DNA of 63,760 bases, the filler included, from Asterionella formosa (Eukaryota): the NCBI GenBank assembly GCA_002256025.1. It is 12 parts of 12 records of this genome, joined end to end, with 100 filler letters (N's around TTAATTAATTAA, not from the genome) between each part and the next. Parts side by side here need not be neighbours in the genome. Positions count along the whole stretch, not along the records: positions 1 to 5,234 come from NKIB01013158.1; 11 more parts are not named here. One strand, 5' to 3'. Each line of letters starts with the position of its first letter. Position 1 is the stretch's first letter. The position numbers were made by a program, and so were the translations under genes. Positions 1-58,550 of the stretch are shown one piece after another. The notes under the pieces are model-generated. The model was not told the DNA's origin and did not search any database. It saw only the letters and a list, made by a program, of their open reading frames with translations.

Positions 1-43
1 ACAACGATTCATTGCAACAGCCTTCTTGGTCTTCGCATTCACG

Positions 44-1489
44 ATGAGTCTAGAAGCAACCTTTGTCGCCGCCCTAAGATCCGTTGGAACTGCTGGGACA
101 TTGGCATTAGCAGGGCTCTATCTCCACCGTCGGGGCTTCGTCACCGCCGAAGGAAAGAAAGCATTGGCCCGTTTATCCGAGCAGGTCACCATTCCCTGTC
201 TCTTTTTCTCCAAAATTATCTACTGTCCCCAGAATTTCACTCGAGAACAGTGTCCCAGCATTACTGATAACCTGGCTGATATTTGGGTATTACTTTTTTG
301 GCCACTCTTTGTCGTTGGTACGGGAATGCTTATTGGCGACCTTGCGACAAGAATATCTGGAACTCCTCGCGATCAGCGTCGGGCTGTCATTGCTGCATGC
401 GCTTTTCCCAATTCTACGGGCATCCCGATCACTCTTTTAACTGTTGTTCATGCAAACTTTCCCCAGACCAGTAAACTGGGGAGAGTCGATCCAAATTTAT
501 TTCTCTCTGTTTATCTCATTCTCTATCCGGTTTTGCAGTGGGGCATTGGCGGATGGTTGTTGGCCTCAGGTGATTCTGATGATGAAGTGAATTTATCTCT
601 CAAAGCGAATGGAGTTCATCACGTGCTCAACTTGCCGGCGAATGATGACCTTGTGGTGCAATGCGACGCAGCGACGAAAATGATCAGAGAGCTCTCTCTC
701 TCTGATTTGCTCGAGAGAAAAGACCCGAAAAACGAGAACCAAAATAGCGATTTCTCACATGGTTCAAATAGTTTTCTGCTTGCACCATCAGATTCAAGCG
801 AGACCTCGCAATTGGTGCCAATTGATCAACCACTATCATCTACGTTATCCGGGAACAGCTTGACAGCCTTAGCGAGGAACTCGGCCGACGATATCGCCCC
901 TTTGATGGAAACGCTTGCCAAAGTCCTTCCAAAGGCATTTCAGCCACCGGTTATTGGTGCATTATTGGGTCTTTTTGTCGCATCCATTCCTCAACTTCGT
1001 GGACTTTTTGTCGATCTTCGTACGAGATCAGACAGCGCTCCTTTGGAATGGTTTTTCGATGGAATCTATTCGGTAAGTCGAAATAGATCTAATTTTAGTT
1101 TGTCGAACGCTTAATGAGTGTTACATGCTTATTAACAAATGTGTCATCTTTAGATTGGGTTGGCTGCTGTCCCGATTAATATGTGTATTCTTGGAATCAA
1201 CCTCTCTATTACATCAATGAAAACTAAAATGGACTTAGCTGCTGCGGAAATTTCGAAGAAGACAATTGCTGCTGTTGTTATTGGAAAGATGGTCGTCATG
1301 CCAATCATTGGTGTGTCAACAACGGTATTATTAAAGAGCTACTTTTGGAAAATTCCAGAAGCAATTGATGACCCGTTCTATCTGGTACTCATGATGGTAA
1401 CTATTACACCCACTGCCAACAATGTGATGGTCATGGTAGAGCTATCAGGAAATGGAGCAAAGGAAGGAATGGCAAGAATTATCGCTTGG
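44..1489 (+). CDS. PIN-LIKES (PILS)/auxin-efflux-carrier family membrane transporter, 3' end lost in N gap
   Basis: Exon 44-1072, GT-AG intron 1073-1153 (GTAAGT...TTTAG), exon 1154-1489 in frame. Two hydrophobic halves flank a hydrophilic loop. Motifs include IPCLFFSKI, AFPNSTGIP, PPVIGALLG, GLAAVP...LG and TPTANN, as in Mem_trans/PILS proteins. Confidence 0.85.
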
Positions 1490-1875
1490 NNNNNNNNNNN
1501 NNNNNNNNNNNNNNNNNNNNNNNNNNNNNNNNNNNNNNNNNNNNNNNNNNNNNNNNNNNNNNNNNNNNNNNNNNNNNNNNNNNNNNNNNNNNNNNNNNNN
1601 NNNNNNNNNNNNNNNNNNNNNNNNNNNNNNNNNNNNNNNNNNNNNNNNNNNNNNNNNNNNNNNNNNNNNNNNNNNNNNNNNNNNNNNNNNNNNNNNNNNN
1701 NNNNNNNNNNNNNNNNNNNNNNNNNNNNNNNNNNNNNNNNNNNNNNNNNNNNNNNNNNNNNNNNNNNNNNNNNNNNNNNNNNNNNNNNNNNNNNNNNNNN
1801 NNNNNNNNNNNNNNNNNNNNNNNNNNNNNNNNNNNNNNNNNNNNNNNNNNNNNNNNNNNNNNNNNNNNNNNNNNN

Positions 1876-2500
1876 CACTTGAGTTGAGATTTTCCTCAAT
1901 TTGATCCACAAACCGAATGAAGTCCTCATCGTGCATTAAGCGTACAATGTAAAACATGGCCTCAGTCTTGCGACGTTTCGTAGTGGCTTCGTCCTTGTGA
2001 GCGAGCAGATCAAGGTAAGCGTTCCTGTCCTCAACATTATCTTCTTCGGTATCATTCAATCGTTCCCTCTTGGTAGCCTTCTTCTGTTGATGAAGTTCAA
2101 TTTCCTTTCCTTTCGACTCTTCGTCGGAATTCACAGATATTGACGATAAATCAGGAATATTGAGCTCGGCAAGTTTATCAAAGAAAGCAATGCTGTCGGT
2201 GACATCTTGAAATTTCAGGACAATGGATCCATTCCCTCGCCGTGTTGGAAAGTAGATCGTACCCTTCCTTCGCACAGCTCGAGCAATCCCGTTCTGCAAG
2301 CTCGTCCTGCGTTCATTCTCATCCTTCTTTGGAAACACCCTGATTCTGACGCGGAATTTTCTTATCTCAACTCCTCCAACACAAGGCGTGGCCATGACTT
2401 TACCTGCGGATTCTGGCACCATTGCCTTTTCCCATCCACGTCCCAATGTCTTGCGATATACCTCAACATGCCATTCATCCTTGCTTTCCATAATTCTCAT
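1876..2500 (-). CDS. Hypothetical protein, candidate REC114/PHS1-like meiotic DSB accessory factor (start uncertain; 3' end runs into gap)
   Basis: About 208 open codons. A beta-rich N-terminal domain (EWHVEVYRK..W; AVRRKGTIYF; IVLKFQD..DSIAFFDKLAEL) is followed by an acidic linker and C-terminal IVRLMHDEDFIRFVDQIEENL, resembling the REC114 C-terminal helix. Confidence 0.5.
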
Positions 2501-2850: not shown

Positions 2851-4404
2851 CTACGACGATCCCTCGTCAAACTTAGTCTTTGCCTGACTAAGGGCATCAA
2901 AGACTCTTTTTGACAAGAATCGCTTTTCGGGATCAAGGTCTATAGTCTTGTCGGGATGGACCACTCGTGTGGCCTTGTGGTAAATCTTTTTGCATTTCCC
3001 ATCGTCAAGAAGATCACCAAGACCGACTGGTTTCCAATTGGCACCTGGCCAAAGAATGATGTGCAAAGTTCCGAGCAAGGCACGAAGCTGTTTTTTCTGG
3101 CCGTGTTCTTCACTCCAAGCCTTGATTTTTGGTTCCAATCGCTTGCGAACTTCATCTTCGGCTTCATCGTCACCTTTCTTCTTTGCTTCACGCTCCTTAA
3201 GTTCATTGATTGCCTTCGCTTGCGACTCTTTCATATCATTCACGCGTTTGTGGACAGCAGCTTGAACATCAGCAGACTTTCCAACAGCGTTCGAAGGGTC
3301 CAACGAGATACCAATAGTTTTGGATCCAGATGACGCAACCGCTGCCTGAGGAGGAGCGGATGTAGTTCCAGCCTTCAGACCAGCCTTTCGATCAACTTCC
3401 ACCCATCGTTGATCAATATCGTCCCAGACACGATTGCTTTGTGCACCCTTCTTCGCATATTCTCGCTTGAGTTTTTCCGCACGGGTTTCATTCGAATCGA
3501 AGGAAGGGGGTGAAGTCGTGGCACGATGAAGCATTCCGTGAACATGATTTGAGGGGGTTTCGCCAAAGTCCATCAGGGAAGCATCTGCACGTGGTTGAGG
3601 AGCAGCAGGTCTGGCAGCAGGTGCTCGAGAAGCGACTTGAGCTGATTGGCTTCCAGGAACAGAAGCAGGTGGCGGTCGCTGCGGAGGGGCTGACTGTGGC
3701 GTAGTGCGAGGAACAGGAGTGGAATTGGTAGGGCGAGGTTTGGGCGCTCTTGGGGTTCGTTCTATACCCCCTGAGGAGCTGCCACCGTGCTTTACACTGA
3801 AATCATGATGCATCTTTCCCAAATCTAGTAGCTTGAATGCAATGATCGGAACACGGGGACCATTGTCGGAATGAGCCCCACCTTCAACGGCAGATTGAAG
3901 GGCCTTTCCGAAATGCTTTAACGCCCCCTTGGCCCCCTTGTTCGAAGACTCTAACGTGCTGGTGGTACCCGAGAACATTTCTGGCATGAACATCTTTTCC
4001 AAGTGCGCCAACGTCGCCTCCTTGACTGGAAGTCTTGCATTTTCATCCTGAATATCCCACCAGCTAAACATGGAATCGAGACCTCCCGGAATGGGTTTGT
4101 CCTCAACACATACTCTCCAATGGAATCCATCCGCACCTGCATGGCTGAGAGAACGCAACGCTCGGCAGTTTCTGTTCCGTTGACATGAGGGTAAAACGGC
4201 GCGAGTCAGCTTCCAAATAGTCATTGTAGCGACTTAACACAGCCAAATATTGGGTTCAACAAGCGATACTCACTGCTTGACAGAAGCCAACGTTAATCCA
4301 CCTGCCTGAGACATTTGGAACGCATTGTAGAGATCATCCACCTTGTCAGTGTCTGAGTTTGTAACCTTGTAGAGCACTGTCACGAGCGTTCCACCGTTAG
4401 ACAT
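2851..4404 (-). CDS. Auxilin-like protein with C-terminal J domain and N-terminal DIX/ubiquitin-like domain
   Basis: Exon 4404-4274, intron 4273-4172 (GTGAGT...AACAG), exon 4171-2851. The C-terminus LRALLGTL..ILWPGANWKPVGLGDLL...KKIYHKATRVVHPDK is the auxilin/Swa2-type J domain. The middle is Pro-rich. Confidence 0.85.
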
Positions 4405-5234
4405 TGGATATGGCGTTCTGACTGCTTGAAAACAGGGCGCAACAGACAGTGAGAGAAAAATGTAAGTAACTTGAAAATTAACATCTCGAAAGCCTGCGAT
4501 TTTCGAACTCAACGGATCGATTTCAGGTTATAGCTGATGGTCGAGGGCAAGTCTATTTTCATGTCGAAATGTCCGTTGCAAGTCTTTCTCCTGATGTCAT
4601 TTCCTAAAACCTTGTACAACATGGTCATCATGGCGCGGATACATACCTTTATGATCGATTCGAATGGGACAGAATTGACGTTTGGCTGACCAAGGAGGAG
4701 TGGAATTGCTTTTCTCAAAACTGGCGGATGGTATATGATGTGAACTGTATTACTACTCCTACTGTAACCATTACAACCAGGCACAACCTGTATCATACCA
4801 CACCAGTGTGTAACGATAAAAACCAAGAAAGCTAAATAATAAGGAGGCAACAATTTTTGCTGCTCTGATTTTTCTGGATGTGTTTTTGGTAAACACTGTA
4901 CGTTAATACTGTGTACTGTGTAGCATGGGCTGCTGCCAGGGGTACCAGGTACCAGTAGTACTTGTAGCAGGTATGAAACTGGTACCAGGGAACCTGTGGT
5001 AAAGGTGTACGAGGTACCAGGTACCGTTGTCGTACCGGGTAGACATGGAGCAATGCTTTGCTTGTCCTGTGCAGCAGATATACATACATGATAAGAATTT
5101 TTGCTTTGGTATGTCCCTACTTGGAACGTTTAGAAGAAGCCCTTTACTCAATGGATGCAAATTAATTTAGCTAGTCCATTGGTTTTTATGGTAAAATATT
5201 TTTTGATATTATTATTAACAGCTGAAATACTGAG

Positions 5235-5334
5235 NNNNNNNNNNNNNNNNNNNNNNNNNNNNNNNNNNNNNNNNNNNNTTAATTAATTAANNNNNNNNNN
5301 NNNNNNNNNNNNNNNNNNNNNNNNNNNNNNNNNN
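5235..5334. other. Artificial scaffold linker (N44-TTAATTAATTAA-N44); first of 11
   Basis: Identical 100-nt linkers also at 10568-10667, 15898-15997, 21227-21326, 26550-26649, 31872-31971, 37191-37290, 42509-42608, 47825-47924, 53138-53237 and 58451-58550. The 12-mer puts stops in all six frames. Confidence 0.98.
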
Positions 5335-55758: not shown

Positions 55759-58095
55759 CTACCACCCTCCATCTTCACCATAGTCAGGATCTGCTCCACT
55801 ACCCATTGCGAAGACCAAAATTTTGTCTTTCTCAAACAACGGAATATATAACTTTGCATATTCGCTCTCTTGCTCAATAGATAGAAAATCATCGTAGCCA
55901 ACACCGATACTCCCGACGGTGGCTCCGCATTCAATCTCGACCATGAGCTTGTAACGCGCTGCTGGATCGGCATACTCCTTTCTACCCTCATCATCACCAA
56001 TGGGACGAAGAATGTAGGCGGACTCGGAGCAGTCGCCAGCAATAGCAATCAACGGACGTCTGCATGATGTAGATCCGCTCTTCGTTGGATGAAATGTGTA
56101 GACAAATCCAGGTGCTCCAGGGTTGATCATGTTGTCCAGCTTGCGTACAACTGTGAAGCCAGCTGCTACTGTTGTTCTCAACCAAGGCTCTGTTTTCCAA
56201 GCGTCCTTACCATCAGGCACTCGAAATGCGAAGAGAGAACCGCCATCAGTGGAGCCCTCGTTCTCAGCGTACCTTAAATCGTCCAGTTCGTTTCGAGGGT
56301 TCCTAACGCGAGATGACATGCCATTACTATCGGTGTATTCCTTGACTCCACCTTCATGGCTAGTCACTAGAATGTGCGAGAATGTGTCACCAGGTATATT
56401 AGTCATCACAGTACTACCCGAATCAACGATAACACGATGAATGTCGTGAGTTCTACAAGTGCCGTTTTCGCAGTCCAAGTCGACAAGGATAGACCCAAAG
56501 ACAGCACCGCATGTGTCATCGATCGTACGCTCAAAGACGATGCGTGGTTCAGGACCACGCAAGATTGACGTCAAAGTAACCTTGTGGCCAAAGAAATGGC
56601 TGGCGATGACTTCGATAGTTCCATCTTCCGTATCCAAATCGGCAACGTTAAACATGACATCAGCGCCTTCACTGAGCACATGCGTCTTCCAAGGGAGGTG
56701 TCTAGGACTGAATGGGTCAAAAACTGTTCCGTCGCTTTCCAGAGGTGTTCCGGTGACAGTGTCATGACGAAAAGGTTTGGGTTGTTCTACCCAAATGAGT
56801 TGCGTTTCAGCTATGCTACCTCCGGACGTACCACTGCCAGAAGAAAATCTGCCTGAAACCTTCGCTCTGGCAGTGAGAATGGATTGTCGACCATCTCCGG
56901 TCAAGTCAATCCAAACCGAGCGGTGATAAAACCAACCCATGTTCTCCGCTTCTGGTCCAACCATGTGGTGTTGTCCGCCTGTTAAACAGATGGTCCACTC
57001 CGAATCTGGATTTCCGGGGTTCTTGACGATATAAAGCCCGCCTTTGTCCTTTCCAGGAACCAAGAATCCATCGCTGACGAGGAGTGCATCATCGAGAATG
57101 AGATGGTCTTCATTTATCGAACTGGTGGATACCGACGATCTTGCCGCGGGATATCTTTGTAAGAGTGACAGTGGAACGGAGCCAGCTTCATTTGGCCACA
57201 GCATCGCTCTTGCTGATCTTTGATTTACAGATCCAATATGGCCAGTTTCGACATCGACACTATGAATAAAACCAACTGGACCAGCTAGGGAAAATCCGCT
57301 CACCCACAACCGATCATGCCGCGGTCCATGACGCTGATCCCTGTCAAGTTGCTCCATAAGAGCAGTGCTTTGCCAGCGATTCCATGCATCGCCTGCATTT
57401 ACTGCTCTACGAAGTGACGCTGTTGATCCCGCTGCAGTGGTTGGTAAAATGTTCAGATAACCAGGTTTTTTCACGTTGATTTCTCCGATTAGTTCCATGC
57501 TCACCATCGCATATTGATCCAGAAGACGTCGGCGCTTGTGGTCGTCAACCCATTGAAACTTCTCCACTGACGCCAGACTTCTGTCCGTGCTGGTTCCGTT
57601 GATGAGAATGGAAGCAGTCCCGGTGTTCTTAATCCATCGTCGAGTAGGGTTCTCTTCGACGGTAATTAATAGAGGGTCTCTACCAGTAACAAACCTTTGA
57701 CGTCCAGAACTCCTCCTGAGAATATTTTGATACACGTTTGAAAGACCATTTAAGCTGGGTTGAGCCAAACGCTTGCTTTGATGGAGCTTCAACCTTTTCC
57801 TGGTTGGGTCAACTTTAAGAGGACCCTCTAGTGGAGCATCCCCGTCGCCGTCAAAGATGGAGTTGACGACACTAGCCATGTCCAGAGAATGCAGTTCATT
57901 AGACGACTCTTGCTTTCTCGGCATGGTACTTTTCTTTTGATGACTCCAAGCAAAGCATCGGTGATGATCAAGTGATGTCGTTTGAACAAAGGCAGATGTA
58001 TTTTCTGGAGCAGCTGAAAGCATCGAGAGAAATGCGGTTATTGTCGCTAACGCATCTTTCCTCGTGATTCTCTGCGAATGGTGACTTCTTGTCAT
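55759..58095 (-). CDS. FG-GAP/VCBS-like beta-propeller protein (778 aa), possibly plastid-targeted
   Basis: Likely start MTRSHH. A hydrophobic stretch ends in TSA-FVQ (ASAFAP-like). Motifs WIDLTGDGRQSILTAR, VADLDTEDGTIEVIAS, LVDLD and IAGD. Confidence 0.75.
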   Translation of the reverse strand: MTRSHHSQRITRKDALATITAFLSMLSAAPENTSAFVQTTSLDHHRCFAWSHQKKSTMPRKQESSNELHSLDMASVVNSIFDGDGDAPLEGPLKVDPTRKRLKLHQSKRLAQPSLNGLSNVYQNILRRSSGRQRFVTGRDPLLITVEENPTRRWIKNTGTASILINGTSTDRSLASVEKFQWVDDHKRRRLLDQYAMVSMELIGEINVKKPGYLNILPTTAAGSTASLRRAVNAGDAWNRWQSTALMEQLDRDQRHGPRHDRLWVSGFSLAGPVGFIHSVDVETGHIGSVNQRSARAMLWPNEAGSVPLSLLQRYPAARSSVSTSSINEDHLILDDALLVSDGFLVPGKDKGGLYIVKNPGNPDSEWTICLTGGQHHMVGPEAENMGWFYHRSVWIDLTGDGRQSILTARAKVSGRFSSGSGTSGGSIAETQLIWVEQPKPFRHDTVTGTPLESDGTVFDPFSPRHLPWKTHVLSEGADVMFNVADLDTEDGTIEVIASHFFGHKVTLTSILRGPEPRIVFERTIDDTCGAVFGSILVDLDCENGTCRTHDIHRVIVDSGSTVMTNIPGDTFSHILVTSHEGGVKEYTDSNGMSSRVRNPRNELDDLRYAENEGSTDGGSLFAFRVPDGKDAWKTEPWLRTTVAAGFTVVRKLDNMINPGAPGFVYTFHPTKSGSTSCRRPLIAIAGDCSESAYILRPIGDDEGRKEYADPAARYKLMVEIECGATVGSIGVGYDDFLSIEQESEYAKLYIPLFEKDKILVFAMGSGADPDYGEDGGW

Positions 58096-58550
58096 TCTGT
58101 GCTCGGTTGTTAATGGCGATGACCAGAATGAGATGACAGGCCTTGCTTGGTGTATTATCAGACTAACAAGGGAATTTGCTCGAAGTATGGAGTCAGAATC
58201 AGTTGATAGATTGTCAGTACCAGGTACCTGGTACCACAGTGAAACGGGTTGAGTACTGGTACCAGGTACCTGGTACCTGGTACTCCAAACCAGGTTTGTA
58301 GTTAACGTACATTCCCTGTGCAGAGGCGCTGGGCTGTTTGTACCTGGTACATGGTACCAGGTACAGATTTTCACTGATGGGACATGGTATTGTAGGTACC
58401 AGGTACCACCTACCTGGTACCGTAGTCTGCCTAGATTTTAGTTGACCGGGNNNNNNNNNNNNNNNNNNNNNNNNNNNNNNNNNNNNNNNNNNNNTTAATT
58501 AATTAANNNNNNNNNNNNNNNNNNNNNNNNNNNNNNNNNNNNNNNNNNNN

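Follow-up and report, generated by a model that had tools for sequence, protein, structure and literature searches.

A candidate diatom orthologue of the meiotic factor REC114 in Asterionella formosa

The locus and its gene model

The window, that is, the whole 63,760-nucleotide stretch of Asterionella formosa DNA analysed here, carries close to its start an intronless open reading frame on the minus strand. This frame runs from an ATG at 2500 to position 1877, encodes 208 amino acids (protein P0001) and then enters an assembly gap at 1875. The features of the gene and its surroundings are as follows, with residue numbers counted from the ATG at 2500.

1876..2500, minus strand: intronless REC114-like open reading frame, a stop-free frame from the ATG at 2500 up to the N gap
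2156..2479, minus strand: PH/EVH1-fold domain, residues 8-115 (strands 10-97, helix 100-114), from AlphaFold2 (mean pLDDT 86, pTM 0.78) and fold searches
2453..2473, minus strand: first-strand motif W10-x-V-x-V-Y-R16 (W in 87% and R in 98% of alignment A3)
2249..2278, minus strand: AVRRKGTIYF, with V76, R78, T81 and Y83 on mouse V97, R99, C102 and L104 at the best of 216 offsets
2036..2155, minus strand: disordered, fast-evolving, net acidic linker, residues 116-155, from pLDDT, composition and identity
1886..1960, minus strand: SSM7-like helix-turn-helix, residues 181-205 (Y184, I185, M189, F194, F197, V198, I201, E202), the predicted MEI4-binding part
1490..1875, no strand: assembly gap represented by 386 N, for which the spanning contigs L002 and L003 give about 259 bases

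A search of the A. formosa genome with P0001 returned three matches. One is the locus; the other two are contigs of 519 bases each (L002 and L003), which overlap the window on either side of the gap and show 11 differences between them. We read these contigs, from their sequences, as two putative alleles of the REC114-like gene, which would make the gene single-locus at the sensitivity of the search. The final 20 codons of the gene, which encode an extra conserved helix, and its stop fall in the gap, as does the end of a convergent transporter gene. The full-length protein would thus comprise 228 amino acids from the ATG at 2500 or 225 from M4; since four of the five closest homologues begin at the equivalent methionine, M4 (position 2491) is the likely true start.

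The transporter gene is of the PIN-like kind (Mem_trans, PF03547, E 8e-16), occupies window positions 2-1489 on the plus strand with an apparent intron near 1073-1152, and continues in L002:132-200. It converges on the REC114-like gene, which lies on the opposite strand, and ends inside the gap at a distance of about 130 bases from that gene's stop codon. On the other side, an upstream neighbour (2851-4423, minus strand), which we take to be auxilin-like, has a weak match to DnaJ (E 0.12) at its end; its intron at 4172-4273 is confirmed by spliced contigs from two runs, and a loose end at 4423 hints at a second splice. Neither flanking gene has a bearing on meiosis. Paired short N runs recur every ~5.3 kb between window positions 5235 and 58550, so the window is not one contig and genes past 5234 are not firm neighbours.

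Protein family, predicted fold and profile searches

P0001 belongs to a large family, with 204 clusters at E<=0.001 and 169 at 1e-10 in a whole-library profile search, of which the best 150 of 204 were listed; word-index searches returned 10, 26 and 23 proteins. Separate profiles of the PH half and the C-terminal half matched 146 and 147 of these best 150, both halves being present in 143 of 150, and the four members with only the C-terminal half are pieces of 79-141 amino acids. Of the 130 sequences in alignment A3, 7 came from the initial searches and 123 were taken from 147 new ones after short pieces and certain very long sequences had been set aside. Conservation is concentrated in the two structured regions, PH domain and C-terminal helices; the linker is variable, with four close homologues showing 16-33% identity there versus 74-82% in the PH part, and it ranges across the family from 20 to 117 amino acids (median 49). 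A helix following SSM7 (D210, G211, L215, A217, F/L218) is also conserved.

Members with species names come from Mediolabrus comicus and Leptocylindrus danicus (2 of the 30 clusters looked up) and from Craspedostauros; all three are diatoms, and all these members are unannotated. The sequencing runs containing the stretch come from fresh waters. One M. comicus entry (P0213, KAL7453869.1) is a 748-residue model joining an eIF3 subunit M-like and a REC114-like protein, and the presence of separate 442- and 322-residue proteins within the same cluster suggests that it is a merged model of two neighbouring genes. A contig from a related strain (run X6), covering window positions 1954-2488, shares changes with P0002, a homologue 97% identical to P0001. 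Strain differences amount to six amino-acid-changing and one silent in the REC114-like gene versus seven and seven in the neighbour, which is not significant (Fisher p 0.17) and does not show relaxed selection on the REC114-like gene.

In the AlphaFold2 model of the 208 residues (27 sequences, mean pLDDT 73.8), residues 10-97 form strands and 100-114 a helix, 120-155 are disordered, and two further helices span 156-190 and 192-207; the first 120 residues alone (142 sequences) reach pLDDT 86 and pTM 0.78. The beta-rich N-terminal domain proposed in the preliminary description is thus predicted as a PH fold. Most of the motifs listed there are present as given: a second tryptophan (W23), AVRRKGTIYF at residues 75-84, and VLKF (94-97) followed by FF (106-107), L110 and EL. 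The first motif had been written as W-x3-Y-R, but the sequence reads W-x4-Y-R (W10, Y15, R16). The linker described there as disordered and acidic has pLDDT below 50 at 120-142 and 144-155 and is net acidic, with 8 K/R and 14 D/E in 53 amino acids of P0002. The C-terminal helix LMHDEDFIRFVDQIEENL is indeed found at 188-205, but it is not the end of the protein, as 20 more residues lie in the gap. Among the 208 in-window residues there are no S/T-Q sites.

Searches with the predicted structures returned PH/EVH1 folds in all top positions, with VIA-align Z-scores of 9-10. In Foldseek, the full model ranked the mouse REC114-TOPOVIBL structure 7qwv first (E 2.6e-3), and the PH model placed REC114 third (E 5.4e-3) after two PP4R3 EVH1 domains; for neither model did any match reach E 0.001. 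With the PH model, three REC114 chains gave the highest query TM-scores listed (0.57, 0.54 and 0.53; others <=0.50). VIA-align scored Dcp1 at Z 9.9 (rmsd 3.2, 95 residues aligned) versus 9.5 for REC114 (4.0, 103) with the full model, and at 10.2 versus 9.2 with the PH model, and in a second VIA-align comparison REC114 stood at rank 24. Identity to mouse REC114 in the structural alignments is 14-19%. For the predicted models, the PH/EVH1 fold is settled, and the fold does not decide between REC114 and Dcp1 or other EVH1 families.

Profile searches with HMMER, proposed in the same description as a check, gave no match to REC114. Pfam assigned no family to P0001 and no REC114-type family to any of 11 close homologues or to any of the 147 remote members scanned among the 150 listed (one of them judged on the best 5 of 14 weak families), although weak, sub-threshold PH-type matches occur in 7 of those 147. 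P0001 falls below the curated cut-offs of PF15165 (REC114-like), PF25349 (PH_PHS1) and PF03525 (Meiotic_rec114), models that are limited by lineage. The same three models returned no candidates from the A. formosa genome, a result obtained with prokaryotic controls that does not speak for absence. Against PDB sequences, the family profiles matched no REC114 chain at E<=10 and gave chance-level matches only, including PP4R3A at E 1.3. Failure of profile searches is usual for REC114-type proteins, according to the accessible parts of PMC9957857 and PMC10393192.

Residue-level evidence for REC114 identity

In the ESM Atlas, the four nearest clusters to P0001 were one REC114-like and three PHS1 clusters (0.89, 0.85, 0.85 and 0.84). 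Ranks 1-4 were again REC114-like or PHS1 for P0051, a member ~36% identical (0.92, 0.88, 0.88 and 0.86; 182 shared features). Scores below 0.9 are leads only on the scale of the tool, recognition of P0051 (2038) lies below the 2300 mark, PF15165 is found on 15% of the members of the top cluster, and the two queries are kin. Diatom-rich DCP1 clusters followed at 0.77-0.78.

The C-terminal helices can be compared with contact residues of mouse REC114, nine of which, L227, F230, L231, L235, F240, F243, V244, V247 and I254, are named in the accessible part of PMC10425845. The first eight fall, ungapped and at one offset, on A181, Y184, I185, M189, F194, F197, V198 and I201, and the ninth, I254, falls on S208 and has no match. 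This offset was the best of 198 over the family profile (21.8 versus 6.9 for the next), with the caveat that amphipathic helices favour hydrophobic matches; the eight columns are 80-100% hydrophobic. Yeast Rec114 offers a second comparison, as F411 and E419 are described as near-invariant and V415 as highly conserved, with F411 right after the turn between two helices (PMC10393192, in part). F194 (126 of 128 sequences, 98%), V198 (102 of 128, 80%) and E202 (91%) keep both the spacing of these three residues and the position after the turn.

In the PH domain, six mouse residues from strands 6-7 of the sheet that binds TOPOVIBL, ANKRD31 and IHO1, taken from the accessible part of PMC9671922, fitted best at offset 21 of 216 (8.8 versus 6.3), an offset compatible with the structural alignment (model residues 2-115 on chain residues 12-144). 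At this offset mouse R99 corresponds to R78 (130 of 130 members), V97 to V76 and L104 to column 83 (L in 103 of 130), the equivalent of C102 (column 81) is C in 25 of 130, and K95 and M100 are unmatched. M115 and R117 are not kept: an offset scan with M115, R117 and Q119 landed on the wrong strand, yielding no mapping onto the last strand and no counterpart of R117. The mouse-type TOPOVIBL-binding surface is not conserved in yeast, so it is not a family-wide criterion.

Comparison by eye with Arabidopsis PHS1 (AtREC114), using the sequence given in PMC9957857, needed no gaps in the first strand, in the last strand and helix, or in the C-terminal motif. The two proteins share W-x5-R in the first strand, G-x-W/GW in the second, and L-[KR]-F followed nine residues on by F, and at SSM7 I185, M189, D191, F194 and E202 are identical. 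In contrast to PHS1, the diatom protein has a shorter linker (~40 amino acids) and is not detected by PF25349. Regular expressions matched 66 and 35 of 130 members versus 28 and 0 of 260,000 shuffles, counts that are not a test because the residue classes were picked after viewing the protein.

Among characterised relatives, mouse REC114 (259 amino acids; PH structures 6HFG, 6NXF and 7QWV; residues 203-254 bind MEI4 2:1) resembles the diatom protein in size, fold and the order of PH domain, linker and helical C-terminus, as well as in the spacing of eight of the nine named C-terminal residues and in the equivalents of V97, R99 and L104. Unlike the mouse protein, the diatom protein lacks equivalents of I254 and R117 and has one extra conserved helix past SSM7. 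An extra helix after SSM7 is shared with C. elegans DSB-1 and DSB-2, for which PMC10393192 reports it, and not for the other orthologues modelled there; unlike those two paralogues, the diatom gene is at a single locus. Saccharomyces cerevisiae Rec114 (PF03525) is far longer, and was compared through its published residues rather than by a tool alignment.

The A. formosa genome has a separate DCP1 gene on contig C996 (E 3e-36), for which the PH profile of the family gives -0.4 bits. P0001 itself has no PF06058 match, and with DCP1 on C996 it is ruled out as the DCP1 of this genome. We put the probability that the gene is a diatom orthologue of REC114 (Rec114/Rec7/PHS1/DSB-1/2) at about 0.85, a reading that rests not on the fold alone but on the combination of Atlas neighbours, the mouse C-terminal spacing, the match to yeast F411/V415/E419, and the separate DCP1. 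Of the REC114/PHS1 identity first proposed, the Atlas neighbours and published residue spacings thus make orthology probable, HMMER lends no support, and a role as SPO11 accessory subunit is extrapolated from orthologues.

Possible role in meiotic break formation and alternative readings

REC114 assists the DNA-cutting enzyme that initiates meiotic recombination and is known from fungi, animals and plants; the gene described here is a candidate in diatoms. In the accessible parts of the sources, REC114 was scored absent in 18 of 18 chrysophyte transcriptomes (PMC6339481) and in a rhizarian inventory whose authors consider that genes of this kind may have been lost in the ancestor of SAR (PMC12096724), and a survey covers metazoans (PMC9665070). 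A paper on the diatom meiotic toolkit gives only SPO11 genes for break formation, with no mention of REC114, MEI4 or MER2, and its table records HOP1, REC8 and DMC1 as not found in diatoms (PMC4647503), while a 2025 paper on brown algae, as far as accessible, only speculates on SPO11 helpers (PMC12678776). No report of a diatom or stramenopile REC114 was found in the literature searched, which included PMC6678668, PMC5695089 and supplements of PMC5654045; subscription papers (Kumar et al. 2010) and supplementary alignments could hold one. The surprise is moderate, since specialists would expect a diatom REC114 orthologue to exist.

The REC114 family is defined by an N-terminal PH domain carrying SSM1-6 (PMC6288613, PMC10393192, in part). 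In the mouse and yeast model, two REC114 C-termini embrace one MEI4 helix, and the mouse PH sheet binds TOPOVIBL, IHO1 or ANKRD31 one at a time (PMC6288613, PMC10425845, PMC9671922, PMC10903461, PMC10393192, each in part). By analogy, the diatom protein probably acts in meiotic break formation as in mouse. Two copies would enclose the N-terminal helix of a single MEI4-like protein with their C-terminal helices, forming a 2:1 unit that would gather on meiotic prophase chromosomes. Its PH domain would bind short helical peptides of a TOPOVIBL-like SPO11 partner and of axis factors, binding that may license SPO11-2 to cut DNA. A complex prediction pairing the last 60 residues of P0002 with themselves scored 0.01, with the alignment unused and the fold uncertain, and carries no weight either way on dimerisation.

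Two genes of the SPO11/TopoVIA family are present in the genome, one on L004 (1317-2657 region) and one on L005 that is intron-split and more divergent; from sequence features we take these to be TOP6A/SPO11-3 and SPO11-2, respectively. PF09239 detected one canonical TopoVIB-type gene (L013) and no second, divergent gene of the TOPOVIBL kind, a search that cannot prove absence. The Mei4 model PF13971, run with prokaryotic controls that likewise leave absence aside, gave no candidate, and a degenerate search pattern describing the N-terminal helix of MEI4 had one match versus two in the reversed control, in no fitting open reading frame.

Contigs from four of four runs lie on the stretch. In run X1 one contig spans 1878-2491 and continues into the gap, in each of X3 and X5 two pieces together cover most of the gene, and X1 and X3 show the upstream neighbour spliced at 4172-4273; run X6 contributes a single unspliced piece across both genes and looks like DNA. 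Positions 2492-2720 have no cover in X1 and X3, and contigs cannot prove lack of a transcript. The REC114-like gene is thus in contigs of three lake RNA libraries, from two studies, with the neighbour spliced or separately assembled and with no sexual stage recorded. Because the gene has no intron, transcription is probable rather than proven, and RNA cover with no recorded sexual stage counts mildly against strict meiosis-specificity. The names rec114, phs1, mei4 and pleckstrin do not occur in three supplementary files of PMC12618581.

The same ancestry could go with a different function, the protein being a true REC114 orthologue that is dispensable for breaks or active in vegetative DNA repair or recombination. 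Arabidopsis PHS1 offers a precedent, being reported as dispensable for breaks (PMC9957857, in part), so that orthology does not fix function. The missing R117 equivalent, the extra C-terminal helix, the lack of MEI4 and TOPOVIBL hits in the genome searches and the RNA cover in lake samples are all consistent with such a shift. However, few parts of the family are conserved as well as the MEI4-contact columns, non-sexual diatom cells are reported to express sex markers at a background level (PMC12618581, in part), and MEI4 and TOPOVIBL diverge too fast for the searches used to show absence. We consider a shifted role unlikely, though it is the most serious of the alternatives.

Less probable still is a diatom-specific EVH1/PH adaptor of Dcp1-, PP4R3-, Homer- or SPRED-like type, a housekeeping protein binding proline-rich or helical peptides, whose C-terminal oligomerisation helix would resemble SSM7 by amphipathic convergence. 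These EVH1 domains share the fold, with Z-scores equal to or slightly above that of REC114, and such an adaptor would also fit the sub-threshold PH-type matches and the occurrence of the gene in RNA libraries with no sexual stage on record. Against it stand the canonical DCP1 elsewhere in the genome, with its negligible score to the family PH profile, and the Atlas, in which EVH1_PP4R3 and DCP1 clusters lie 0.07-0.15 under the top REC114-like cluster. Such a reading would require the F-x2-F-V-x2-[ILV]-E spacing, its location behind the linker and the match to three distant REC114 proteins all to be coincidental, and we know of no Dcp1, PP4R3, Homer or SPRED family that ends in an SSM7-like helix pair. 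A spurious open reading frame or assembly artefact, to which the abutting N gap and the lack of a Pfam match might point, is refuted by a conserved family of 204 homologous clusters with conserved halves and a variable linker, and by two alleles that close the frame cleanly.

If the gene is the REC114 orthologue that we favour, a further and rather doubtful proposal is that diatoms keep a REC114 module without known HOP1, REC8, DMC1, TOPOVIBL or MEI4, the altered PH surface and extra helix marking a rewired break machine. REC114 would then reach SPO11-2 and the chromosome axis via partners unlike those of mouse, yeast and plants.

Two further observations concern repetitive DNA. Window positions 4900-5130 and 55762-58437 hold tracts of GGTACCAGGTACCAG-like repeats that produce long low-complexity frames (WYQVPGT) and are probably repeat rather than genes. 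Translation of L006:1994-2714 reads as frame-broken fragments resembling a Harbinger/PIF-type DDE transposase.
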